A stretch of DNA of 49,676 nucleotides from NCBI GenBank assembly GCA_964503935.1, contig CAZDCJ010000002.1:1-49676 (forward strand), read 5' to 3'. This stretch comes from an uncultured Candidatus Saccharibacteria bacterium. Its GTDB lineage: Bacteria; Patescibacteriota; Minisyncoccia; JAHIHE01; JAGLIN01. Made by a program: the position numbers and the translations under genes. Under the pieces are notes generated by a model. That model was not told where the DNA came from. It made no database searches and was given only the letters and a program-made list of their open reading frames with translations. This document shows, one piece after another, positions 1,915-36,740 of this stretch (positions are counted from its first letter, which is position 1; the number at the start of each line of letters is the position of its first letter).

Positions 1915-2721
1915 TCAAATCTTTTCCCTGGCAAAGCGGAGATAGGTCTCGAAGGAATTCACCTGTCGGTCGATATTGAACTCTATGAAATTCTTCATAA
2001 GGAGCGCGGCGCGGAATATCGCCCCGTACTCGGCCTTGATCCGCGAGAGCTCGGCAAGCTTATCCGATACCGCTTTCCCATAATCGGGACTATCGCGATC
2101 CACGACCAGGAACCGCATCAACTTAATAGCCTCATCGGACACATGGACCGCATCCGGAATCCTCGCCGCGCATGCCGTATCAAGGACTCCGCCCAGCGAA
2201 AAGCTGAAGTAGTTCTTGCCCGCGTATATCTTCTCTCCGCAAAAGACGCACTTGTCAGACTGCGGAGAGAAACCGGAAAGCGACAGGAGATTCACTTCGA
2301 AGAATAGTATCAAGAGCCACCAGAGAGACTGCCTATCCTCAGGCTCCCTATCCAAGAAGACGAAAGATGACCGAAGAAGGTCGAATACGCGTCGATCATG
2401 ATATCCCTCCAAGGTCATCCGGTCCGCGATTTCCGCCATCACTGACGCGGCCATGATCCTGTCGAAAGAACGGCGGAGTGTGAGAAATGGGTCAAGGACG
2501 AAGCTGTTCGCGACAGTGTCCGTCTTCTTGCCATGGACAAGATTGAAATCCGCACACAAAAAGGGCTCAAGATGTCCCTTGAGTTTTCCCTTTGCCTTGC
2601 GCGCGCTCTTGCCTACCGCCTGCGTTTTGCCGAAATCCCGCGTATATATGCGCACCGAGAGGTTCGTTTCTCCGAAATCGCTGCGTCGCAAGATTATCCC
2701 TTGTGTGCGATAAGTGCTCAT
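1915..2721 (-). CDS. recO: DNA repair protein RecO
   Basis: 268 aa. N-terminus MSTYRTQGIILRRSDFGETNL is typical of the RecO OB fold. CxxC zinc motif CVFCGEK. ATGA overlap with the ileS stop. Confidence 0.85.
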   Translation of the reverse strand: MSTYRTQGIILRRSDFGETNLSVRIYTRDFGKTQAVGKSARKAKGKLKGHLEPFLCADFNLVHGKKTDTVANSFVLDPFLTLRRSFDRIMAASVMAEIADRMTLEGYHDRRVFDLLRSSFVFLDREPEDRQSLWWLLILFFEVNLLSLSGFSPQSDKCVFCGEKIYAGKNYFSFSLGGVLDTACAARIPDAVHVSDEAIKLMRFLVVDRDSPDYGKAVSDKLAELSRIKAEYGAIFRAALLMKNFIEFNIDRQVNSFETYLRFAREKI

Positions 2722-5700
2722 TTCTTTATACCTAAGATTACTTTTTCGCCGCTTAAGTCGAGCTCCGCCATGCCGTCAAACTCTTCCGAAACGACAGCAT
2801 CGACCGCATCAAGCTGGCGAAGGAGACATTCTTTCCTGATTTCCTCTGTCCACTGCCCGAACATCTTCCTGGCTTTGACTTCGCCTTCGGATACCGAATA
2901 CTTTACACTTACGATGTCATCACGCTCATACTTCGCGTTCTTGCGCATCGCCTGGATCTGCCGGATGACCTCGCGCGCCGCGCCTTCGAGCTCCAGCTCT
3001 TCGGTAAGGTTGAGATCAAGCGCCACACGGATACTGCCTTCGGGAGAAATGCCCCAGCCTTCCCTTTCCATAACCGCATCGATGACTTCCACTTCTTTGA
3101 CATTCAGCTCGTCTTTGAGGATATCGATAAGCTCGTCTCTGAGCTCCCCTGCTCCCGCTTTCTGGACCGACAAAGTCCGGAGTGGCATCCGGACTTTCAT
3201 CCGGTTCTGCGCCCTGACCGCGAGACCGAGCGTCACGACCTCGCGCGCCGCTTCCATCTGCTTGCTCAATTCATTATCAATCTTATCACTATCAGCTTCC
3301 GGAAATCTTTCCAAATGCACTGACTTCTTATCCGTGAGATTCTTGAATATCTCGTCCGCGATGAACGGCATGAACGGCGCCATCAGCTTCGTAAATGTCA
3401 CGAGGACGTGATAGAGTGTATGGTAAGCCGCCAATCTGTCCGCCGCAGCTTCCGAGGTGAAGCGCCGACGCGACCTTCTCACATACCAGTTGGAAAGCTC
3501 ATCCATGAAATCCATGAGCGGCCGCGATGCTTTCACCAGGTCGTAATCCTGCATCTCCCGATCGACTTCCGAAATCAGCAGATTGAGCTCAGAAATGATC
3601 CATCTGTCGAGAAGATTATCAGACTCCTTGTAATCCGTTATTTCCTCTCTTTCGATCTTGCCCAATTCCGCATTCATCACGAAGAACGAATATGTATTCC
3701 AGAGCGTCAGCACGAATTTCTTGAGGACCTCGTCCACGCCCTTTTCCGAAAATCTGAGATTCTCCGCCTTCATGACCGGCGAGGTGAAGAGGTAATAGCG
3801 CAGGGCATCCGCGCCGTATTTCTCGAGGATTACGTTCGGATCCGGATAATTCTTGAGTTTCTTGCTCATCTTCTGTCCGTCTTCCGCAAGAACGATCCCA
3901 TTCACGATCACATTCTTGAAAGCCGGCTTGTCGAAGAGGGCGGTCGAGAGAACCATGAGCGTATAGAACCACCCGCGGGTCTGGTCGATGCCTTCCGCGA
4001 TAAAATCCGCCGGATAGCTCGTTTCAAACTTCTCCTTGTTCTCGAAAGGATAATGGAGCTGCGCGTACGGCATGGAGCCCGACTCGAACCAGCAATCGAA
4101 CACGTCGCCGACGATCTTCATCGGCCTCCCGCACTCCGGGCAAGCAAGACAGATCTCGTCGATATACGGCTTATGCAGATCGAATCGCTTGCCGTCTTCG
4201 CGGACGTAAAAAGTCCTGGTTTTGGCATTCTGTATCTTCATCTCGATAGCAAAATAGCTTTCCACATCAAGATCATTCAGGATCTTCTCCAGCATCGCCC
4301 CTACGATACCATGAGCGACGACCAAGATATTTTTGCCCGGATATTTCTCTATGCACTCTCCGATGAACTCCCCAACTCTCTTTTCCGCATCGACTCTCGA
4401 CTCGCCATCACCGCCAAAGCGAAAATTATATCTCTCTTGCACATTGCCGAATGTCTTCTTATAATCACGATAAAGTTCGTTCTTTTCCTGCAGCTCGGCA
4501 TTAGTGAATCCATCCCAAGCTCCATAATCCATTTCACGGATGAGTTCGCTCTTCTCTATGGGCATATCCAGCACTTCGGCGATGATTTCCGCAGTTTCCA
4601 TGGCACGCATGACCGGTGAAGATAGTATAATATCCACCTTCTCGTTCTTGAGCTGCCGGGCCAGATCTTCGGACTGTTTTCTTCCTTCAGGAGCCAGATG
4701 ATGGTTGTTATTCCCGCTGGAACGGACACCCAGGATATTGCTCTCGGCGATGCCATGCCGCGCGAAGATAAATTTCGTTATCTTCCTGTCAGTCTTCGCG
4801 CGAAGCTCATCGATTGAACCGATCACTTCCGTCTTGCCGCAGTCCGCGCATTTCCATATCGGAAGCGGCGCACCCCAGAAACGGCTGCGGGAGATCGCCC
4901 AGTCGCGCGCATCCTCCAGCCATTTGCCGAAGCGTCCGTCCTTGATGTATCCCGGCACCCAGTTCACCTGCTGATTGTTCTTTACGAGACTGTCCTTGAG
5001 CTTCGTCACCTCGACGAACCATGACCCTGAGGCGTAATTGAGGAGCGGTGTGTCGCATCTCCAACAGTGCGGATAGCTATGCTTGTAATTCTCCCAAGCG
5101 AAAAGCTTCCCTCTGTCATTAAGATAATTTTTTACATGTTCATCTGTCTCGCGGGAATTACGTTTGGGCTTTACTTCCCTGCCTTGTCCTTCCTTATCGA
5201 CAAAATATGATTTCTCGTCCTCCGACATCGCATCCATGAAATCAACGAAATGTCCGGTGCGGCTGACATGCTGCACGAACGGCAGTTTCTCCTCGCGCCC
5301 GAGTCTCATGTCGTCCTCGCCGAACGCCGGCGCGATGTGCACCACGCCCACGCCTTCTTCCGTCGTCACGAAATCCCCCGCATAGATTTTCCATCCATTC
5401 TCTCGGTTCACAAGGTCCTCTTTCTCCGCATAGTAGTTAAAAAGAGGTTCATATTCAAGACCGACAAGTTGTTTGCCCTTAAATCGTTTGACTTCTTCTC
5501 CATGTGAGGCCAACATCTGATACACAGAAGCTTTGTCGTTTGGATTTCCTCCAGGAAAATTTCCATATTCACTATACTCTATCCATTCTTTATTAGTCTT
5601 CTCTCTCCATTGCTTAGCTATATCCGCGGACAAAATATAGAAGATGCCCCTATCATTCAACATCACATATTCAATATCCTCCCCCACCGCCAGCGCCACG

Positions 5701-6566
5701 TTCCCCGGCAGCGTCCACGGCGTCGTAGTCCAGGCCAGGATATATACATCGCTGCCATCCTGAGCCTTAGCGAAGGATCCCGTTATATCCTGCATAAGTT
5801 CGGGATTCTTCACTTCGCTATCGCTCCGTTCAGAATGACTGCCCTTTTCCCCCTCAACACTCTCCGGATCCGCGTCATTCCCCTCTTGAGAAGGGCTAGG
5901 GGTGTGTAGTATTTTCTCCGCGCTCTCCTTCGTAAGCTTGAACTTAACCGTCGCGGAAATGTCCGTGACATCCTTGTACCCCTGTGTCACCTCGAAATTG
6001 GAAAGCGTCGTCTCACACCGCGGACAAAGATGCATCGCCTTATATCCTTCGTAAGCCAGCCCTTTCTTGTACACTTCGGAAAAGACCCACCAGATCGATT
6101 CGGTATATTTCCAATCCATCGTCCGGTAGTCATTCTCCATGTCCACCCAGCGCCCGACGCGGGGAATGAACTCCTTCCACTCCTTGGCATATCTCTGGAC
6201 CGATCCGCAGCACGCTTCGTTGAACTTATCGACGCCCAGCTTCTCGATCTGCTGTTTATTCTCGATTCCGAGCTCCTTCTCGATGAGATTCTCGACCGGC
6301 AAGCCATGGCAGTCCCAGCCCCAGCGGCGGTCGACGCGCCTTCCTTTCATTGTCCAGTAGCGCGGCACCGCGTCCTTGATAAGACTCGCCACCACATGCC
6401 CATAGTGCGGCAATCCGGTCGCGAATGGCGGCCCGTCATAAAAGCTGAAAGCCGGCCGGCCGCCGTCCGACATCGACTCTTCGAAGATTTTCTCGTTTTT
6501 CCAGGACTCCATGGTTTCCTTTTCCATCTCGGGGAAATTCCGCCTCGGATCTACCCTCTTGAACAT
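2718..6566 (-). CDS. ileS: Isoleucyl-tRNA synthetase, unusually long at 1282 aa, carrying an inserted histidine-phosphatase domain
   Basis: HIGH-type motif PHYGH, KMSKS motif KMSKKL, editing-domain signature WTTTPWTLPGN, and Cys knuckles CADCGK and CPECGRPM. Extra segment with RHG...VVAHG at residues ~596-793. Confidence 0.95.
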   Translation of the reverse strand: MFKRVDPRRNFPEMEKETMESWKNEKIFEESMSDGGRPAFSFYDGPPFATGLPHYGHVVASLIKDAVPRYWTMKGRRVDRRWGWDCHGLPVENLIEKELGIENKQQIEKLGVDKFNEACCGSVQRYAKEWKEFIPRVGRWVDMENDYRTMDWKYTESIWWVFSEVYKKGLAYEGYKAMHLCPRCETTLSNFEVTQGYKDVTDISATVKFKLTKESAEKILHTPSPSQEGNDADPESVEGEKGSHSERSDSEVKNPELMQDITGSFAKAQDGSDVYILAWTTTPWTLPGNVALAVGEDIEYVMLNDRGIFYILSADIAKQWREKTNKEWIEYSEYGNFPGGNPNDKASVYQMLASHGEEVKRFKGKQLVGLEYEPLFNYYAEKEDLVNRENGWKIYAGDFVTTEEGVGVVHIAPAFGEDDMRLGREEKLPFVQHVSRTGHFVDFMDAMSEDEKSYFVDKEGQGREVKPKRNSRETDEHVKNYLNDRGKLFAWENYKHSYPHCWRCDTPLLNYASGSWFVEVTKLKDSLVKNNQQVNWVPGYIKDGRFGKWLEDARDWAISRSRFWGAPLPIWKCADCGKTEVIGSIDELRAKTDRKITKFIFARHGIAESNILGVRSSGNNNHHLAPEGRKQSEDLARQLKNEKVDIILSSPVMRAMETAEIIAEVLDMPIEKSELIREMDYGAWDGFTNAELQEKNELYRDYKKTFGNVQERYNFRFGGDGESRVDAEKRVGEFIGECIEKYPGKNILVVAHGIVGAMLEKILNDLDVESYFAIEMKIQNAKTRTFYVREDGKRFDLHKPYIDEICLACPECGRPMKIVGDVFDCWFESGSMPYAQLHYPFENKEKFETSYPADFIAEGIDQTRGWFYTLMVLSTALFDKPAFKNVIVNGIVLAEDGQKMSKKLKNYPDPNVILEKYGADALRYYLFTSPVMKAENLRFSEKGVDEVLKKFVLTLWNTYSFFVMNAELGKIEREEITDYKESDNLLDRWIISELNLLISEVDREMQDYDLVKASRPLMDFMDELSNWYVRRSRRRFTSEAAADRLAAYHTLYHVLVTFTKLMAPFMPFIADEIFKNLTDKKSVHLERFPEADSDKIDNELSKQMEAAREVVTLGLAVRAQNRMKVRMPLRTLSVQKAGAGELRDELIDILKDELNVKEVEVIDAVMEREGWGISPEGSIRVALDLNLTEELELEGAAREVIRQIQAMRKNAKYERDDIVSVKYSVSEGEVKARKMFGQWTEEIRKECLLRQLDAVDAVVSEEFDGMAELDLSGEKVILGIKK

Positions 6567-6654
6567 ATATTTTAGATTAAGATGCTTAACATGAATATCA
6601 CAACCGACATGATTGATCCGATAAGCTTTATATCATGAAGAAAATCCCACCATT

Positions 6655-6774
6655 GTCATTCCGAGAACTTGGCTACGCCGAGCATAAACTCCGCGAGGAA
6701 TCCCTCTCTTAAGTCAGAAATGTACGATAAACAGGCAAGATGAGTGATGATCGAGGGATTCTTACCAGAATGAC
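6655..6774. repeat. MITE-like inverted-repeat element (gtcattccgag ... agaatgac)
   Basis: Terminal motifs gtcattccgag (6655-6665) and cagaatgac (6766-6774). Internal inverted repeat gaggaatccctc / gagggattc. Same family as the copies at 19096, 20843 and 36821. Confidence 0.6.
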
Positions 6775-7039
6775 AAATTGATGGATTTGTCGCGAGATAT
6801 AAGGCTCATAGGACTGATTTAGATAGTTTCTATATCCTATATGCTTGCTATTGACAACATTAATCTTAAGCCAAAAAGAGGTAAAAGTAAAGAAAAAAGA
6901 ACCGAATATAGATCCGGTTCAAACTCAGGTTTCGGCGCGATTTTCCGCTTTGATTTACTTTCTGTTTTTCCAAAAGACGTCTTTTGTCCGATATCTTCTT
7001 TCGTCTCCAAAGAACGATATTTCCCGACACGCGAGGAAA

Positions 7040-7558
7040 TCACACATATCCCGGAATATTCTTATCTTTCTGATATTTTTCTCCTAGATGAGATTGCATC
7101 ATCTTCACCAGATCCTCTTCATCCGCCACCTCTGCGATAAAGATGCTACCGCCACAAGGAATTAGCGCCAGTTTCTTGTCAAAAACTGATTCTGCCTGAG
7201 AACGCGTAATTCTCATCTTGGTATTACAGCGGAAGAAACACTTGGCCAAGGAGCACTTGGCGTCTATCTCCTTTATCCGCTTGCGGGAGTCGATTTCCAG
7301 CTTTTCGAAATCTCTTCCGCCGAGGATTTCCTATATCTTCTTCTCATATCGATCGACAAGATCGATGGCCAGTTCTTCGAAACCATTGATAGGACCCCAT
7401 TTTTTCATTCCCATTTCTTGGAGCATCTTCTCGAATTCGAATTCTTTGCTACGCTCGGCATCGCTTGGAAGGAGCGATTCATCGCATTTCTCACGATACA
7501 GATCGTTCAGATCCGCCAGTATTTCTCCCAAGATGCCGGAAAGGACGCACCGCGGCAT
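7040..7558 (-). pseudogene. Orphan gene interrupted by one in-frame TAG (75-aa and 69-aa ORFs in the same frame)
   Basis: ORFs 7331..7558 and 7040..7249 share a frame (offset 309 nt). The only stop between them is TAG at 7331-7333, and the translation continues ...EKKI*EILGGRDFEKLEIDSRKRIKEIDAKCSLAKCFF... Confidence 0.4.
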
Positions 7559-7721
7559 ATCCGCATAGACAAAATCGATTCTTTTTTCCAGAATATCAAC
7601 TCTTTTTGTTTTTATGCATATTTTATGCGTTAGTTATTCTATCCTTGAAACGACGATGCGTCAACGGACGCGGCACGAAAACAAAAAAATAGCCGAGTCT
7701 CGCGACTTGGCATCGGAATAT

Positions 7722-8339
7722 TCATACATATCCCGTTAAATCATCCTCTCTTGTAATTTGTCCGCAATTCTTTTCCGGAACCACATTCTTCGTAAAATCA
7801 TTCGACGGAACGAAAGTAATAAAGATCTGCGGCTTTTTCAACAACCAAACCGAATAATCCTCATCTACATCGAATCCGGGAAAACCATACTGCTCGTTTT
7901 CTTCGAAATTATCCTCGGATATGCCCACTTCGAACATCGCGCCGGCCACAATACACCGTCCGGTCAATGCTTGATATTCCTTAATCTTTATCAGTTCCCC
8001 TTCCGCAAGATTACCTTTTTTTCTGCGGAATGCCTCGATCTTATACTCGTAAATCTTATGCAGGGTAAACCAAAGCTTGTCTTCTTCTCTCATCGAGCGC
8101 AGTTTTTTTTCCGTTCTCGATTTATCCAGCGGCGCAGGCTGTATGAATATCTGATTTTCATGAAGAAGAAAGATATCACGCAACGGAGTGTTTTGCAGCG
8201 GGAATTTGGCTGCCATTTCCTCTACGCTCTTTGCCGATAACCATTCTTCCGTATCATTTCCGACCGACGTTTCTCCGGGGACTGATGCTTCATTATCTCT
8301 TTCTTCGCATATTTCCTCCATATTTTCACCTTCTCCCAT
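7722..8339 (-). CDS. Hypothetical acidic protein (205 aa)
   Basis: Long ORF in an AT-richer block. No family recognised by eye. Confidence 0.5.
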   Translation of the reverse strand: MGEGENMEEICEERDNEASVPGETSVGNDTEEWLSAKSVEEMAAKFPLQNTPLRDIFLLHENQIFIQPAPLDKSRTEKKLRSMREEDKLWFTLHKIYEYKIEAFRRKKGNLAEGELIKIKEYQALTGRCIVAGAMFEVGISEDNFEENEQYGFPGFDVDEDYSVWLLKKPQIFITFVPSNDFTKNVVPEKNCGQITREDDLTGYV

Positions 8340-8464
8340 TTCAATGTACGTTTTTATTGCATTTTTTTCATCTTACACAAATCCCCCCGAAAGTCAATCG
8401 CTATTGACGACTGACGATTTATATGCCATAGATTATGCGAGATTAAAGCTTGAGGAGGAATCGT

Positions 8465-8836
8465 ATGTGCTTAAACGAAAAGATAGAAGGATTGGAAAGA
8501 TTGCATGCCGTAATCGTAAGCATGACGGAAAGAGATTGTTCCATGCCCGGTCCTGGTCCTGTTTTTTTCCATAGCCTGGAGGAAATGAAAAAAGCAAAAG
8601 AGGAAGGAACGGAGTATATGGAATGGCTCTCCCCCATGGCAATACTGGTAATCGGCATCTCAGGAGGCTTTTGTCTCGACCCCGGCCAGATCAATGATAT
8701 CGAAGAAGAAGACAAGATATGGAAAATGATCGAGTCGGCGGCAAGTGAAGGAAAAGGCCTGAGCCAACTTTTGGAAGAAGTAAACAAACTGATTGCAGAA
8801 GATTCATCCAAAAGCACGAAGAAGAACGACATCTGA
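8465..8836 (+). CDS. Hypothetical protein (123 aa)
   Basis: ATG at 8465, 6 nt after the SD gaggagg (8452-8458). In frame with track ORF 8450..8836. Confidence 0.55.
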   Translation: MCLNEKIEGLERLHAVIVSMTERDCSMPGPGPVFFHSLEEMKKAKEEGTEYMEWLSPMAILVIGISGGFCLDPGQINDIEEEDKIWKMIESAASEGKGLSQLLEEVNKLIAEDSSKSTKKNDI

Positions 8837-11308: not shown

Positions 11309-11923
11309 TTATAAACTGTCAGTCGTCTCAGCACATCGTATACCAATCCCCGCCCCATAGGATCCGTATAACCGACAGCGGCCAATATGGATCACTATCC
11401 ACACCGCAAGCACGTAAGCAAAGCCGAGGAGCGCGCTCCATAGGACGGATTTTATCCTGGCCATCTTATCGGATGCACCCACGCTCGTCATGACAAGAAG
11501 CTGCCCCAGGATTATGATAAGGAAGGCAAAAATACCCACGATTTTCACGAGAAATTCGGCTATCATCTGGAGCGCAAGCGAGATTGAAAAGAAATCGCAC
11601 TTATCGCATTCGTTCCAATCGGTATCAGGATCGTTCGTATTTCTGCCGCACGAGATAAGTCCGGCTGAATCTTCGACATCAGTGCAAGCTGCGGTCGCGG
11701 TCTCAGCGGACTCTCGCAGCTCAGAGTAGAGAGGATCCGGTTTGATCGCCTCAAGCAATTTCGCCACGTCTCCATAGATATAGGAAGAGGTAAGCGATAC
11801 AGGGTCTCCGGGATCGGTAAATTGCGGAGTATGTCCACCTCCCGAACTGCCAGAACCGGAGCCACTGCCGCCACCCGTATCAAAATCCAAGGCAAAGTTA
11901 TCTTCTTTCGGTGCAGGCGGCAT
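11309..11923 (-). CDS. Putative pilin-like protein (TrbC/VirB2-like, CPR-type T4SS pilin architecture)
   Basis: Gly/Ser-rich N-terminus and a Cys pair (CDKCDF), then two TM helices separated by a short loop (ILGQLLVMTSVGASDKMARIKSVLWSALLGFAYVLAVWIV). Confidence 0.45.
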   Translation of the reverse strand: MPPAPKEDNFALDFDTGGGSGSGSGSSGGGHTPQFTDPGDPVSLTSSYIYGDVAKLLEAIKPDPLYSELRESAETATAACTDVEDSAGLISCGRNTNDPDTDWNECDKCDFFSISLALQMIAEFLVKIVGIFAFLIIILGQLLVMTSVGASDKMARIKSVLWSALLGFAYVLAVWIVIHIGRCRLYGSYGAGIGIRCAETTDSL

Positions 11924-11985
11924 CGTCTCCTGTCTTGTCTTTCCGGTCAGACTGGCTTGGGAAGTATTACCATAGACTCCCGCGT

Positions 11986-13445
11986 TTATCCGACCGCCGT
12001 CATAATCCGGCTCGTTGGAGTAATCGCTCGAAGGGGGCCGGCATCGATACCCGAAGGATTGACCGTATCAGATACCCAGGCATTCTGGGAAGGACTCCAC
12101 CGTCCCGCAATCGATTTTATATGATAATCTTTATTCCCGCGGTCTGCGTACAGAGGATCCGCGTTCACATCAGATGAGGAGCTGACGTTCTTGTAATTGC
12201 CGCCGACATTCCCGTACACCGGGTTGTTTTCCAGAATAAGCTGCCCTTCCGCCGTATTGTAATTGATGACGCCCTGCCCGCTCTGCGAAGCACCCCCCCC
12301 CGGACTGCCGCTCTTGTTGCCTCCGCGCTTCACGCTGTTAGTGACGATATTGTTGCGTATATGCACGTCATATTTGCCGCTCGTACTGTTTGACTGCAGG
12401 CCCAGCGATTCCAGATAGACGATTCCGCCGGCATAATTCCCGTCCAGAGTATTGTTTTCAATGACTACGTTATAGACCCCGCTCGTCACGATACCCGCCA
12501 TCCAGTCATAAGACGAATGTCAACCACAGTCGGCGATGATATTGTGGTGGATATGGACGTTCTTCACCTGGCCCCTCGTATACGAAGGGCTGTCGAATGC
12601 GACAAGCCGGATGCCTGCCTGCCAAGTGTGGTAAAGGAGGTTATTATAGACTTCTATATCATGAAGATCATCGCCCTTGCCCCCCTCTGCAGTTCCAGCC
12701 CCGGTCCGCCGGGAGAAAAATATTCGCCTTCTTTGGCATAGATAAAATTATCATGTATCCTGACGTAGCTGCTGCCGAAGAGCCGCACTCCCGCGTTGCC
12801 TCGGGTCCTTATGTTATTGTCGTATATGTCCCCGTTCTGGCATGACTGCAGAACAATAGCATCATGCCCGAGCGTATCTGCCTTGAGACCGAAGATCCGC
12901 ACATTCATGCTATATCTCACCTTTATCCCGTCGCCGGGACTGTTATGCCAATGCATGTCATAGGCCTCCAAATCATTGTACGAGATATTCATAAAATTCC
13001 TGCGGCCATCTCCGATGCCCTTATCAGAATCGCCGCGATTATTGTTATTGTAATCTCCGTCAATCTCAAATCCCCGGATCACGATCGTATTCTTGCCCGT
13101 AGAAGACTTGCTTCCGCTATTCTCGATCGATGCATCATTAAGGGATCCTTCCGGCCAGAAGCTTTCCGCAAAAGTTAGTACAGTCCCCGATTCCCCTTCG
13201 GGGGTAGTGCTGTCACCAATCCGTATGGTATTGGATGCGACATATCTCCCCTTCTTGAGATGGACGATCGACCCCGGGCTTTTTGCGGCTTCCGTGAGCG
13301 CCTCATTGATCTGCGCCTGATCGGCGCTGCCGTCGCAATTGTAATTCCCGCTTCCGTCCCTTGAGACATGATAAATAGCGGCATCGGCCGCAGGAGCAAG
13401 AGCGCTTGTCAGGACAATGACGGCAAAAGACGCCATCAAAAACAC
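11986..13445 (-). pseudogene. Secreted right-handed beta-helix (PbH1/pectate-lyase-like) repeat protein, disrupted
   Basis: Signal peptide MFLMASFAVIVLTSALAPAADA. Repeats NNIRTRGNAGVRLF, IHDNFIY, IENNTLDGN and IRNNIVTN. The frame changes near the C6/G6 run at 12680-12685, and there is an in-frame TGA at 12520-12522 (..HHNIIADCG*HSSYDWMAGIV..). Confidence 0.6.
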
Positions 13446-13657: not shown

Positions 13658-14110
13658 ATGGAAAATTACGCGGTAAACAAACGAGCGACCTTTGACTACG
13701 AACTCCTAGAGAAGATGGAGGGCGGTTTGGTCTTGTCCGGATATGAAGTAAAGGCTATAAAAACCGGACATCTGAGCCTCAAAGGGGCCTTCCTGACCGT
13801 CCATGAGGGCGAACTCTACCTCACCAACGCCCATATCCCCGCTTACCAAAGACTAAATACGCCCGAAAAATACGACGAATACCGTGCCCGCAAGGTATTG
13901 GTAAAAAAGCGCGAACTTGATTCCCTGATAGGCAAGATCAAGCAGAAAGGCTTGACATTAGTGCCTGTTAGGGTATACTCAAGTCACAGGCTTATAAAGC
14001 TGGAGTTTGCTGTTGGCAAGGGAAAAAAGCTCATGGATAAGCGCGAAGACATCAAGAAGCGCGAGGCAAATATCAGCATGCGTAGAGCCCTCCGGGGAAA
14101 CAAAGAGTAA
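13658..14110 (+). CDS. smpB: SsrA-binding protein SmpB
   Basis: 150 aa. NKRATFDYELLEKMEGGLVLSGYEVKAIK is canonical. The gene lies immediately upstream of the tmRNA. Confidence 0.95.
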   Translation: MENYAVNKRATFDYELLEKMEGGLVLSGYEVKAIKTGHLSLKGAFLTVHEGELYLTNAHIPAYQRLNTPEKYDEYRARKVLVKKRELDSLIGKIKQKGLTLVPVRVYSSHRLIKLEFAVGKGKKLMDKREDIKKREANISMRRALRGNKE

Positions 14111-14197: not shown

Positions 14198-14594
14198 GGG
14201 GATGTATTTTGGCTTCGATAGGAATCTTGTTCATTGATTGCCAATCGAGCACGCAGCCTGGCTCGTAAAAACCGGCTGCAAACACGTAAGTGCAAACACA
14301 TTTACAAGCAAAGTAGCTAACCTTTTCAGGACTGCTGCTTTCGCTCCCGCTGTTGCTTAAATAGCTGACAGCCATCGGACTATCGAAGCTTGATAGATAG
14401 ACCCCAGTGTCATACATCAAGCGTAGGAATCGAGAGCTGGCTGCGCCTTGATTCTGAAACTTAAGCGGCCTCGGATCTGCCGGATCTCGTCCGTTCTTTA
14501 CCTGCAGATCTTAAAACAGACGAACGGGCTATATTGGTAGAAAATTTCTGGACGGATTATCTAGACGCGGGTTCGACTCCCGCCATCTCCACCA
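14198..14594 (+). ncRNA. ssrA: tmRNA (ssrA)
   Basis: 5' end GGGGATG..., 3' tRNA-like end GGACGCGGGTTCGACTCCCGCCATCTCCACCA. Candidate tag ORF 14292-14360 ends ..APAVA-TAA. Confidence 0.9.
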
Positions 14595-35012: not shown

Positions 35013-36740
35013 TTACCTTATCGCGTCGGCCACCCTCTGCGGCACTTCCCGGTCGAACGGATCCGGGATGATCTGCTCCGGCGTCGGATTCTCGACGCAA
35101 TCCGCGATCGCCTCGGCCGCACGGACAAGCATCTCATCCGTTATCTGCTTCACTTTGTGGTCGAGCGCGCCACGGAATATTCCCGGAAAAGCCAGCACAT
35201 TATTCACTTGGTTCGGAAAATCGCTCCGGCCGCTCGCCACGATATATGCTCCGGCTTCTTTCGCCTTATCCGGCATGATTTCCGGCACGGGATTTGCCAG
35301 CGCGAAGATGATAGGCTTCTCGTTCATCGTCCTTACCATCTCTCCTTTAAGCACGTCCGGCGCGCTCATCCCGATGAAGATATCCGCTCCTTTCACTGCC
35401 TGCGCGAGATCGCCTGTAATCTTCTCCGGATTAGTAATTTTCGCCATCTCATCTTTGGACGGATTCATGCAATCCCGTCCTTCGCAGACGATTCCCTTGC
35501 TGTCCGCCATGATGATATCTTTGAAGCCATATTTAAGAAGCAGCTTTGCCGTCGCGATTCCCGCCGCGCCCGCGCCGTTTACGATGATTTTCGCATCCTC
35601 TTTCGCCGCCCCGCGGAGCCGGAGCGCGTTGATAAGCCCGGCCAGGACCACGACCGCCGTGCCGTGCTGGTCGTCATGCATAACGGGAATAGAGAGCTCA
35701 GCCTTGAGTCTCTCCTCCACCTCGAAACACCGCGGCGCCGAGATATCCTCGAGATTGATGCCCGCGAAATTGGGCGCGAGCAATTTCACCGTCCGGATGA
35801 TCTCTTCCGTGTCCTGGGTATCGAGACAGACCGGAAACGCGTCCACGCCGCCGAACTTCTTGAAGAGTATCGCCTTGCCTTCCATCACCGGCAGCGCCGC
35901 CTCCGGTCCGAGATTGCCGAGTCCCAAGATCGCGCTCCCGTCGCTTACCACCGCGACCGCGTTGCCGCGAAACGTGAGCTCGAAAGACTTGTCCTTGTCC
36001 GCCGCGATCTCCCGGCACACGCCCGCCACTCCCGGCGAATAAGCCAGGCTGAGTTCTCCCCGGTCGGTCACCGGCACCTTGGAACGGATTTCCAGTTTGC
36101 CTTTATTTTTCCTGTGGAGTTCCACCGACTCCGAATAGATGTCTTGCATATGATTTTCTTTTATCTTCAAATTAATGGATTCGCTGATTTCTTCTAATAT
36201 GTGAACTAATCTTTCTGTTTCTTCTGTATCGAATATGCACATCCTACTATCCATAACTAAAAAATTTGCGATTTCTATAATAGGTAAGCATTGCTCGTAA
36301 ATATACTCATCTTCTATACCCCACCCTACCGGTGAATAATGAATAAACCGATTCCTTAAGCCATCATTCAAGATTCTCATTGCCTCTTTATGTCGTTCTT
36401 CTGCAACAAAGGGCTTACTATCTACATACCCGCCCATACGATCAGGATTCTGTATGCGATTAAAGGCACCCAAAAACTCTATTAATTTGTTTTTTTTATT
36501 AAATACATCTACGCCCCCCCCGCTAGCACGTTTTATAGGCAAACCATCCTTTTCGTTCTCCACCCAAATTCCCTCCCCCGCAGTTCCTACAAGTGCATAT
36601 AACATTAAATGGTAAATAGCATGATGGAACGATAATACAAACCATTTCAGATTTAGGTTACTTTCCGACGGAGTTTCAGAAAGAAACTGCTCCGCTCTCT
36701 CAAGGGAATCAAAAATATTTGTCTTTTCGTCAATCCTCAA
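35013..36740 (-). CDS. NAD(P)-dependent malic enzyme with an in-frame ~197-aa N-terminal extension
   Basis: From M198: MQDIYSESVELHRKNKGKLEIRSKVPV...LSLAYSPGVA...VVSDGSAILGLGNLG is canonical malic enzyme. The extension (TTG start at 36740) is AT-rich and contains LRNRFIHY. Confidence 0.9.
   Translation of the reverse strand: MRIDEKTNIFDSLERAEQFLSETPSESNLNLKWFVLSFHHAIYHLMLYALVGTAGEGIWVENEKDGLPIKRASGGGVDVFNKKNKLIEFLGAFNRIQNPDRMGGYVDSKPFVAEERHKEAMRILNDGLRNRFIHYSPVGWGIEDEYIYEQCLPIIEIANFLVMDSRMCIFDTEETERLVHILEEISESINLKIKENHMQDIYSESVELHRKNKGKLEIRSKVPVTDRGELSLAYSPGVAGVCREIAADKDKSFELTFRGNAVAVVSDGSAILGLGNLGPEAALPVMEGKAILFKKFGGVDAFPVCLDTQDTEEIIRTVKLLAPNFAGINLEDISAPRCFEVEERLKAELSIPVMHDDQHGTAVVVLAGLINALRLRGAAKEDAKIIVNGAGAAGIATAKLLLKYGFKDIIMADSKGIVCEGRDCMNPSKDEMAKITNPEKITGDLAQAVKGADIFIGMSAPDVLKGEMVRTMNEKPIIFALANPVPEIMPDKAKEAGAYIVASGRSDFPNQVNNVLAFPGIFRGALDHKVKQITDEMLVRAAEAIADCVENPTPEQIIPDPFDREVPQRVADAIR

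Follow-up and report, generated by a model that had tools for sequence, protein, structure and literature searches.

The window, that is, the whole stretch of 49,676 nucleotides that was analysed, carries on its minus strand an ileS gene (2718–6566) encoding a type-2, eukaryote-like isoleucyl-tRNA synthetase (IleRS) of 1282 amino acids, as identified by Pfam, NCBIfam and PDB matches. The whole protein scores 895.8 bits against the NCBIfam equivalog TIGR00392 (ileS), for which the cut-off is 621.4, and its best PDB matches are type-2 IleRS. Its Pfam architecture consists of tRNA-synt_1 (residues 19–593), His_Phos_1 (600–796), Anticodon_1 and DUF5915. The class I motifs are intact, HIGH being present as HYGH (54–57) and KMSKS as KMSKK (899–903), as is the motif WTTTPWTL (279–286) of the CP1 editing domain; the positions of all three are kept in the family alignment. 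The protein belongs neither to the ileS_w_GNAT family (NF040702, 287.8 bits against a cut-off of 1999) nor to the MupA/MupB IleRS (718–728 against 1900).

The stop of ileS overlaps by 4 nt with recO (1915–2721, minus strand). Both genes are part of a conserved (ArgRS-)IleRS-RecO block, whose synteny is seen in four other loci (L001, L004, L005 and L006). Such conservation points to an orthologous housekeeping ileS locus, and the syntenic position beside recO supports a housekeeping role for the putative ileS of the window.

The second Zn knuckle of the synthetase is split into two distant halves on the minus strand, C573-A-D-C576 (4839–4850) and C809-P-E-C812 (4131–4142), and both Cys pairs reach a conservation of 90% or more in the family alignment. 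Zn sites are familiar from the IleRS of Thermus thermophilus. The second half is followed by DVFDCWFESG (4077–4106, minus strand), which in class I synthetases starts the second half of the Rossmann fold. The protein further contains an acidic, Ser-rich insertion of low complexity (residues 214–272, 59 aa; 5751–5927, minus strand), which is specific to the window, is predicted to be disordered (pLDDT 29–43) and is missing from the syntenic relative L006. This segment occupies the site where other CPR IleRS hold a NUDIX domain (reference site 218).

A histidine phosphatase lies between the halves of the second Zn knuckle

Between C573/C576 and C809/C812, the initial annotation had recognized a complete histidine-phosphatase domain. 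A Pfam search, as it had suggested, gave a highly significant match to His_Phos_1 (PF00300; 127 bits and E 8e-37, the cut-off being 21.7 bits) that spans profile positions 2–189 of 194, with an envelope at residues 600–796 (nt 4179–4769), and alignments of the borders agreed with this assignment. In the alignment with the solved type-2 IleRS 8c8u, residue 591 of the window protein corresponds to residue 477 and residue 794 to residue 485, so that about 200 aa stand in place of about 7. The borders were refined with the insert-less syntenic relative (locus L006, protein P0025). At the DNA level, window positions 4186–4812 match 63 nt of this relative, so that the window is longer by 564 nt (188 aa) net; at the protein level, its loop PKSIG is replaced by residues ~594–785. 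We thus place the nested branch-1 histidine phosphatase at 4212–4787 on the minus strand. The range of residues 596–793 given previously maps exactly to nt 4188–4781 and is right in its main part, but its last eight or so residues (FYVREDGK) belong to the host.

In ordinary IleRS, both the solved ones and those of insert-less CPR relatives, the loop at this site is about 5–8 residues long. The short linker assumed by the initial annotation is thus confirmed, and the possibility that the segment is a common connective-peptide variant of IleRS was ruled out. An intein or another mobile element was likewise ruled out, as His_Phos_1 is the only Pfam match in the insert and covers all of it.

All the motifs quoted for the domain (RHG, SSPVMRAMETA, EMDYGAWDG and VVAHG) are present. 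The RHG motif (4752–4760, minus strand, as for the residues that follow) comprises R603, the predicted phospho-acceptor nucleophile H604 and G605; R and H are found in 110 of 110 homologues and G in 105. The second phosphate-binding Arg, R654 in SSPVMRAMETA (4605–4607), and the second catalytic His, H752 in VVAHG (4311–4313), are present in all 110 homologues. The predicted general acid/base, E678 in REMDYGAWDG (4533–4535), is Glu in 102 homologues and Asp in the other 8, and R730 is likewise invariant across the 110. GTDB was searched for related loci with a 6-sequence alignment; of the domains from 80 species loci, 79 were aligned, and R603, H604, R654 and H752 are invariant in all 79. Judged by this invariance, the catalytic residues are intact and not decayed, as first proposed, and the nested domain is very likely an active phosphatase.

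Predicted structure and family of the nested domain

The AF2 model of the insert alone has a pLDDT of 95.2 and a pTM of 0.91. In the model of residues 1–1150 (pLDDT 87.3, pTM 0.82), the blocks of the insert reach pLDDT values of 87–97, while the host superimposes on the T. thermophilus IleRS (1ILE) with a TMt of 0.91. The expectation that the domain would fold independently, leaving the IleRS core undisturbed, is therefore borne out, and the models show phosphatase and synthetase as separate predicted folding modules. A Foldseek search with the insert returned many members of the superfamily with a probability of 1.00 and TM values of 0.70–0.82, the best matches being PspA (4ij5/4ij6), Rv2419c, CobC and PhoE.

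From the modelled structure, the nearest fold is that of the small PhoE/PspA/CobC-type phosphatases and not that of phosphoglycerate mutases. A true phosphoglycerate mutase (dPGM) was rejected, since the scores are 35.8 against 81.7 for TIGR01258 and 78.9 against 225 for NF038349, and the nearest structures differ. All PRK models of dPGM also scored far under their cut-offs, with only the N-terminal ~100 residues matched. The earlier description of the domain as PGAM-like thus holds at the level of the superfamily, but the dPGM family scores do not extend it further.

None of the NCBIfam equivalog cut-offs is reached by the domain, and all scores lie far below them. The best match, the CobC alpha-ribazole phosphatase TIGR03162, scores 97.2 against a cut-off of 162.9. 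The metal-independent phosphoserine phosphatase PspA (NF045917) scores 90.4 against 350, although it is the best structural match. As the domain is a member of no NCBIfam equivalog, a substrate cannot be transferred to it from free-standing relatives.

The insertion is widespread in Patescibacteria and was lost repeatedly

A survey of related genomes, also proposed in the initial annotation, showed that the insertion is not peculiar to the window: it is found lineage-wide in CPR/Patescibacteria IleRS. A search with the full-length protein found it at the identical site in 110 of the 121 closest homologues, and no fewer than 108 Patescibacteria species in GTDB have it there; the design is shared by hundreds of uncultured relatives. 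About 80 independent genome assemblies show a reading frame that runs through the insert without a break, and one cluster representative (P0015) is 100% identical. A chimeric assembly was ruled out, as the junctions are repeated in these 110 homologues and in the ~80 GTDB loci with intact reading frames. IleRS bearing the phosphatase have been in public databases since about 2015.

Over the 110 homologues, mean pairwise identity is 37% for the insert against 60% for the core, with a correlation of insert and core of r 0.66. In a neighbour-joining tree built on 904 core columns, insert-less IleRS are nested at no fewer than 4 places within phosphatase-bearing clades, the tree being without support values. 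The insert-less and fully syntenic P0025 has a core identity of 84% to the window protein, equal to that of the closest phosphatase-bearing homologue. A recent horizontal gain in the lineage of the window was rejected on the basis of the tree and of the correlation of insert and core; ancestral presence followed by repeated loss is favoured. These comparisons show an insert that, as read from the alignments, is inherited vertically with its host and evolves faster than it, yet retains its predicted catalytic residues. Having been lost at least 4 times, the insert appears dispensable for aminoacylation, and we are highly confident that the phosphatase is not required for this reaction.

Related domains in and beside class Ia synthetases

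Distinct histidine-phosphatase domains, 30–37% identical to the type found at the site described here (site 1) in IleRS, are present in the homologous loop of CPR valyl-tRNA synthetases (ValRS). Some IleRS possess a second phosphatase site or tandem copies, with up to 4 copies, and some sister IleRS contain a NUDIX domain that is MutT-like and intact. In two genomes a stand-alone gene of the site-1 type neighbours an insert-less ileS, from which it lies 9 nt upstream in L087 and ~1 kb upstream in L083; this evidence for a phosphatase beside ileS comes from two loci, one of which is an 842-bp contig. Stand-alone and tandem phosphatase-phosphatase proteins of related sequence also exist. Two of the stand-alone phosphatases, P0164 and P0210, are located on short contigs.

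Among the best 150 profile matches, the only multi-domain hosts identified are IleRS and ValRS; 10 of these matches were checked by Pfam and the others by length and match position, and the profile contained short IleRS flanks. The shared ValRS loop, the second IleRS site and the neighbouring genes argue that, at least as seen from sequence, the phosphatase is linked to class Ia synthetases rather than fused at random.

Discussion

We propose that, in an ancestor of this Patescibacteria (CPR) bacterium, a complete histidine phosphatase of branch 1 entered a type-2 IleRS at the tip of the hairpin formed by the second Zn knuckle, where the loop directly precedes DVFDCWFESG. As the insert-less relatives show, it can be lost cleanly without destroying the synthetase. 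The resulting protein would be bifunctional, its IleRS part charging tRNA-Ile as usual and its tethered domain working as an active phosphomonoesterase with H604 as phospho-acceptor. This domain would take no part in aminoacylation and would act on a small soluble phosphorylated substrate. As to the class of substrate, we think first of nucleotides or of compounds derived from them that arise at the synthetase or close to it, such as NMP/NDP or the Nudix products of NTPs or Ap4A, in which case a nucleotide-housekeeping activity would be physically coupled to class Ia synthetases. As a whole, this explanation of a bifunctional IleRS with a tethered nucleotide-type phosphomonoesterase seems to us reasonably probable.

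Its most specific part, a nucleotide-type substrate functionally linked to the synthetase, is put forward tentatively. The hints are the NUDIX domain of sister IleRS and the fact that the best NCBIfam match of the phosphatase is the nucleotide phosphatase CobC. However, the best structural match is a phosphoserine phosphatase, and a non-nucleotide metabolite would be equally compatible.

The repeated loss of the domain fits a coupled function as well as a dispensable passenger. In the latter case, a housekeeping phosphatase (PspA-like or broad PhoE-like), functionally unrelated to IleRS, would have lodged in a structurally tolerant loop on the surface of an essential protein whose expression is constitutive, and been kept in streamlined CPR genomes for its secured expression. 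The closest solved structures are indeed small-molecule phosphatases, namely the iPSP PspA (30% identity, TM 0.75–0.82), GpgP, CobC and PhoE; the synthetase is retained each time the insert is lost; the insert evolves much faster than its host; and related stand-alone and tandem proteins exist. A passenger, however, would not be expected to enter independently the same loop of the anciently diverged paralogues IleRS and ValRS, nor to be found at a second IleRS site, in up to 4 copies or as a stand-alone gene adjoining ileS. The restriction of multi-domain hosts to IleRS and ValRS among the best 150 profile matches, 10 of them Pfam-checked, also speaks against it, and we regard such an origin as rather unlikely.

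The coupled function that we prefer may belong to a broader pattern. CPR IleRS and ValRS could be scaffolds for functionally coupled small-molecule hydrolases (one to four histidine phosphatases, a MutT-like Nudix and, elsewhere, a GNAT), which would remove or recycle by-products of nucleotides, or toxic compounds, that arise at the adenylate site or are directed against it (dinucleotides such as Ap4A, damaged NTP/NDP, inhibitors that mimic the adenylate), or would repair the ends of tRNA. Ap4A is known to be made by synthetases. This generalization is doubtful at present.

A direct action on tRNA or on adenylates is improbable. It comes close to the idea of the initial annotation, which suggested a substrate related to nucleotides or aminoacyl-adenylates, or else a coupling of tRNA charging to signalling. 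The domain would then take 3'- or 2'-phosphates off damaged tRNA before it is charged, or destroy phosphorylated or adenylate-mimicking inhibitors at the active site. In favour of this, the domain is inserted directly before the strand that carries the active-site motif DVFDCWFESG, and the same loop is used in ValRS. IleRS with an embedded GNAT (NF040702) and sister IleRS with a NUDIX domain make enzymes on nucleotidyl or aminoacyl compounds recurrent guests. MccE and RimL, for instance, are GNAT enzymes that detoxify mimics of aminoacyl-adenylates, and SixA illustrates that the histidine-phosphatase fold can cleave P-N bonds; both could serve as precedents. Histidine phosphatases are nevertheless known to target terminal phosphoryl groups and not the diester or anhydride of aminoacyl-adenylates, and we know of no member of the superfamily that acts on RNA ends. 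The domain is, moreover, dispensable in close relatives, and a basic RNA-binding extension is not evident in it.

An artefact or a decaying domain, be it a chimera of the assembly, a mobile insertion resembling an intein or a degenerating pseudo-enzyme that is no more than a structural spacer, is effectively refuted, for although GC is slightly lower across the insert (0.45–0.50 against 0.51–0.57 in the flanks) and the exact 1282-aa product has no record in the contig index, the junctions are shared by more than 100 independent assemblies, the phosphatase model fills the insert and leaves no space for intein blocks, the catalytic residues are invariant in 110 sequences despite their low mean identity, and a cluster representative is fully identical.

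Few enzymes are as conserved as the aminoacyl-tRNA synthetases. To our knowledge, extra catalytic domains nested in their Rossmann-fold body are rare and have proved decisive where studied, as with the CP1 editing domain. We know of no study of a phosphatase nested in IleRS, and a limited literature search found none of this design, an earlier description being possible. In a very large radiation of uncultured bacteria with minimal genomes, IleRS and, independently, ValRS bear the conserved phosphatase in the same loop. If the two activities are coupled, the domain would give synthetases a new accessory role, be it in nucleotide hygiene, in defence against inhibitors or in the repair of tRNA, and could help to explain how CPR handle scavenged nucleotide pools; if the synthetases act as coupled scaffolds, minimal cells would have an unrecognised layer of synthetase-linked nucleotide housekeeping. 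If the two activities are uncoupled, the protein would show cleanly how, in nature, one domain can be nested in an essential enzyme. Pairs of nearly identical loci with and without the domain are of use in protein engineering and in dating its gain and its loss. The NCBI pipeline at present gives the phosphatase-bearing proteins no name more specific than 'class I tRNA ligase family protein', and with this generic name ileS and valS seem to be missing from many CPR annotations.

Comparison with known systems

The closest known relatives of the host are Priestia megaterium IleRS2 (8c8u; E 4e-225) and T. thermophilus IleRS (1ILE), which are of the bacterial type 2, eukaryote-like and of the mupirocin-resistant type. 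The window protein shares with them the Rossmann fold with CP1 editing domain, the two Zn knuckles, the anticodon-binding domain, the C-terminal DUF5915 domain and the HIGH and KMSKS motifs. It differs in having a phosphatase of ~190 aa where 8c8u has a linker of ~7 residues (477–485), and in the 59-aa disordered insert at 214–272, which neither of them contains.

The guest resembles the small histidine phosphatases Hydrogenobacter thermophilus PspA (4ij5), Geobacillus PhoE (1h2e), CobC (6e4b) and the GpgP Rv2419c (4pz9) in its fold, its size of ~200 aa and its set of RHG, Asn, Arg, Glu and His residues, with 22–30% identity and TM values of 0.70–0.82. These enzymes are usually dimeric. They are also free-standing, whereas the phosphatase of the window is nested in its host through its N- and C-termini.

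Other fusions offer partial parallels. The curated ileS_w_GNAT family (NF040702) sets a precedent for IleRS with a catalytic domain of foreign origin inside it, but its guest is a GNAT and, to judge by offsets in model coordinates, lies in the CP1/editing region and not in the Zn-knuckle loop. The Rv2228c-type RNase H/acid phosphatase (NF005567) joins a CobC/PhoE-like histidine phosphatase to a nucleic-acid enzyme and is the second-best NCBIfam match of the domain (92.6 bits, under the cut-off of 326); its two parts are fused end to end and not nested. Mycobacterial MutT1 (NF052459) is a two-domain enzyme that combines a Nudix and a histidine-phosphatase domain, the same two families as the guests of CPR IleRS. 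The phosphatase of MutT1 follows the Nudix step by turning 8-oxo-GDP into 8-oxo-GMP, and Ap4A is likewise hydrolysed by the enzyme. Its similarity to the phosphatase of the window is marginal (E 0.004), it is not borne by a synthetase, and the window protein is without NUDIX; it can serve all the same as a working model for a nucleotide-directed activity of the nested domain.

A histidine phosphatase nested in IleRS

The ileS ORF of the window (2718-6566, minus strand) encodes a protein of 1282 aa in which Pfam recognizes tRNA-synt_1 (19-593 and beyond), His_Phos_1, Anticodon_1 and DUF5915. With a score of 895.8, the protein lies above the curated cut-off of the NCBIfam ileS equivalog (621.4), and it falls under those of MupA/MupB and of the exception family of GNAT-containing IleRS. 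The initial annotation had placed a phosphatase inside IleRS at 4188-4781. These coordinates correspond to residues 596-793, all the motifs it quoted are present, and the Pfam search it proposed returned His_Phos_1 at residues 600-796 (E = 8e-37), covering almost the entire profile. The presence of a histidine-phosphatase domain (HP) inside the window IleRS is confirmed, far beyond chance. In the alignment to solved structures, the closest of which is the type-2 IleRS of Priestia megaterium, residues 591 and 794 match residues 477 and 485 of that enzyme, which has about seven residues where the window IleRS has about 200.

The borders of the insertion were located by comparison with P0025 (1037 aa), a cluster representative without insert from contigs L005/L006. 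These contigs show the same gene order as the window (smpB, beta-helix protein, GT4, hypotheticals, ileS, recO of 268 aa, GT2 of 516 aa) at 76-88% nucleotide identity. In the ileS alignment, 63 nt of L006 correspond to window nucleotides 4186-4812, a net difference of 564 nt; at the protein level, residues ~594-785 (RKITKF...KTRT) stand in place of a five-residue loop (PKSIG/PETIS). The loop, hereafter site 1, is preceded by a helix (...GSIDELRAK..) and followed by a strand (F(Y)V.(E)DG..FDLHKPYID). It is flanked by C573xxC576 and C809xxC812, both at least 90% conserved in the family alignment. In T. thermophilus IleRS these pairs have their counterpart in the second zinc site (Cys461/464/502/504). 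After C809xxC812 comes DVFDCWFESG, the motif that starts the second half of the Rossmann fold in class I synthetases.

Neighbouring genes

The beta-helix, disaggregatase-related gene, a single gene of 720-757 aa in L005/L006, is spread in the window (11309-13445, minus strand) over at least three ORFs (11309-11923, 11986-12501 and 12654-13445); it may be a pseudogene or reflect sequencing frameshifts. Directly after smpB (13658-14110, plus strand) lies a full-length tmRNA (14198-14594, plus strand; Rfam RF00023, 132.6 bits), a position at which ARAGORN gave no tmRNA. The N-terminal 213 residues of the malic-enzyme ORF (35013-36740, minus strand) have no Pfam match and may represent an over-extended TTG start or an extra domain.

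Fold, catalytic residues and class of the insert

For the HP plus short flanking segments, AlphaFold2 gave pLDDT 95.2 and pTM 0.91. The model of residues 1-1150 reached 87.3 and 0.82, with 87-97 in the insert blocks and disorder confined to 227-267 and 326-347. Its target-normalised TM is 0.91 to 1ILE and 0.83 to yeast IleRS, so that the host fold is undisturbed. These models predict that the insert folds independently of the IleRS core, a point the initial annotation had proposed to check. The window IleRS is a nested two-enzyme protein.

R603, H604, R654, R730 and H752, as well as G628 and S650, are invariant in all 110 insert-bearing sequences; E722 is retained in 109 and N610 in 103, and at position 678 there are 102 sequences with Glu and 8 with Asp. 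The conservation of the catalytic residues was repeated in 79 of 79 aligned HP domains from GTDB loci. The catalytic machinery is under strong purifying selection and, judged by its residues, the domain is probably competent rather than decayed, as initially suggested. Mean pairwise identity is 37% for the insert versus 60% for the IleRS core (904 columns), and the two are correlated (Pearson 0.66), as expected under vertical co-inheritance: the HP is inherited together with its host.

The nearest relatives found with Foldseek and phmmer are phosphatases of ~200 aa. The metal-independent phosphoserine phosphatase PspA of H. thermophilus is 30% identical to the HP (TM 0.75-0.82), and further near structures are E. 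histolytica PSP, Rv2419c GpgP, CobC, a riboflavin-pathway HFP and PhoE. Alignment with true mutases gave an rmsd of 6-8 Å. The HP reaches no NCBIfam equivalog cut-off (score/cut-off: CobC 97/163, RNase H-acid phosphatase 93/326, PspA 90/350), and dPGM models score it far lower still. From these structures and scores it is therefore a branch-1 phosphatase: the initial label of 'PGAM-like' holds for the superfamily and is too specific if read as PGAM proper, dPGM scores being far below cut-off.

Distribution in Patescibacteria (CPR)

The full-length homologue search gave the window's own cluster and 119 others among the matches listed. In the joint alignment, site 1 holds 198-236 residues in 110 of 121 sequences and 20-28 in the remaining 11. 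Named homologues come from MAGs of Patescibacteria, Parcubacteria, Pacebacteria and 'Altimarinota'. A scan of GTDB (one genome per species) with only two peptide patterns detected the insert in at least 108 species, labelled Paceibacterota/Minisyncoccia, Nomura-, Zambryski-, Taylor-, Ryan-, Azam-, Giovannoni- and Moranbacteria, Peregrini-/Peribacteria, Gracilibacteria and 'Saccharibacteria'; nearly all loci not clipped by a contig end show a single unbroken frame of 1100-1340 codons. This recurrence in related genomes, which the initial annotation had suggested surveying, and the intact frames rule out a chimeric assembly, leaving any artefactual explanation a negligible probability. The HP profile search of 1.84 billion representatives yielded 1294 clusters at E <= 1e-30, and HP-bearing sequences have been available in public databases from about 2015 onwards (e.g. 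GW2011 Nomurabacteria, L043).

Most named homologues are annotated by NCBI merely as 'class I tRNA ligase family protein', the only name carried by phosphatase-bearing IleRS/ValRS such as P0038, P0048, P0049, P0054, P0291 and P0293; ileS and valS are therefore under-called by automated annotation in many CPR genomes. Throughout loci L001 and L004, which come from relatives with long-read or low-coverage assemblies, ArgRS, IleRS and other genes are split into many short ORFs. This pattern is more suggestive of frameshift errors than of biology, and it accounts for the fragmentary matches of the initial homologue search.

Additional sites and guests

The HP profile also matched valine-tRNA ligases (identity by NCBIfam; 848.8 versus 704 for P0193) containing two to four HP domains. 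A search with P0193 found His_Phos_1 (PF00300) in roughly 70 of the 120 best ValRS clusters, named Peregrinibacteria or Gracilibacteria; one to four copies occur in P0193 (L090, 703-5319), P0135, P0213 and P0284-P0395. The ValRS insert lies between DWCISRQIWWGHRIPVWY and DTLDTWFSS, in the loop homologous to site 1. Within IleRS, a second HP is found between the catalytic and anticodon-binding domains (site 2) in P0096, P0107, P0113, P0115, P0126 and P0136, and also at L002 5856-8129 (proteins of 1420-1485 aa), and P0139 and P0146 carry tandem HPs at site 1.

Some CPR IleRS, with or without HP, contain an intact MutT-like NUDIX domain with a complete Nudix box (GX5EX7REVXEEXGV), located within or next to the CP1 editing region at residue ~218 (P0033, P0036, P0039, P0041, P0042, P0066-P0069, P0071) or ~330 (P0049, P0078). 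Residues 214-272 of the window IleRS (5751-5927, minus strand) form a low-complexity insert, acidic and Ser-rich (…HTPSPSQEGNDADPESVEGEKGSHSERSDSEVKNPELMQ…) and predicted to be disordered (pLDDT 29-43), which the syntenic L006 IleRS lacks. It coincides with the position of the 130-aa NUDIX of other CPR IleRS; this site thus constitutes a second insertion hot-spot.

Relationships, free copies and losses

Best-hit analysis groups the site-1 IleRS HPs coherently. HPs of site 2, of ValRS and of free tandem HP-HP proteins share no more than 30-37% identity with this group, which suggests from sequence comparison that they were acquired separately; ancient duplication may be an alternative origin. 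Closest to the site-1 group are a few free single-domain HPs (median identity 47%). On L087, the free HP P0151 (22-642) stops 9 nt ahead of the start of a CPR-type IleRS (651-842, same strand) that is 68% identical to P0148 over 62 residues. On L083, from Moranbacteria, the order is ArgRS, HP (194 aa; 3983-4567), a 311-aa ORF and insert-less IleRS (5606-8611, same strand). Both free HPs belong to the site-1 clade and lie upstream of ileS. Insert-less IleRS occupy at least four separate positions within HP-bearing clades of an NJ tree built on core columns without support values, one of which groups the window with P0017 and P0025 in a trichotomy. The host gene can survive removal of the HP.

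Possible function

Accessory domains of synthetases, such as CP1 editing and the appended domains of eukaryotes, are already known, and IleRS with an embedded GNAT is a curated NCBIfam family. To our knowledge, no IleRS or ValRS has been described whose Rossmann-fold body harbours a histidine phosphatase, and a very limited literature search found no published account of such an IleRS. The lineage-wide, multi-synthetase pattern, more than the window itself, should interest synthetase and CPR specialists.

The guest would be an active phosphomonoesterase acting on a soluble substrate and would take no part in the aminoacylation mechanism. Its single most likely specific function, proposed tentatively, is that of a nucleotide-directed phosphomonoesterase which is tethered to a class Ia synthetase and linked to its chemistry. 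Points for a possible coupling to the synthetase are that the same loop is used independently in IleRS and ValRS, that a second site and copy-number amplification exist, that free HPs adjoin ileS and that a MutT-like Nudix co-occurs. Second comes the somewhat doubtful possibility of a mere passenger, functionally unlinked to the synthetase, to which the repeated losses of the HP, its faster evolution than the host and its closest structural neighbours, metabolic phosphatases, all point. A tRNA- or adenylate-directed role is improbable. As for the nucleotide-directed function, Ap4A in cells classically stems from synthetases, and in mycobacterial MutT1 a Nudix domain and a histidine phosphatase work one after the other on 8-oxo-GTP and Ap4A, an arrangement which the Nudix/HP pairing in CPR IleRS resembles.
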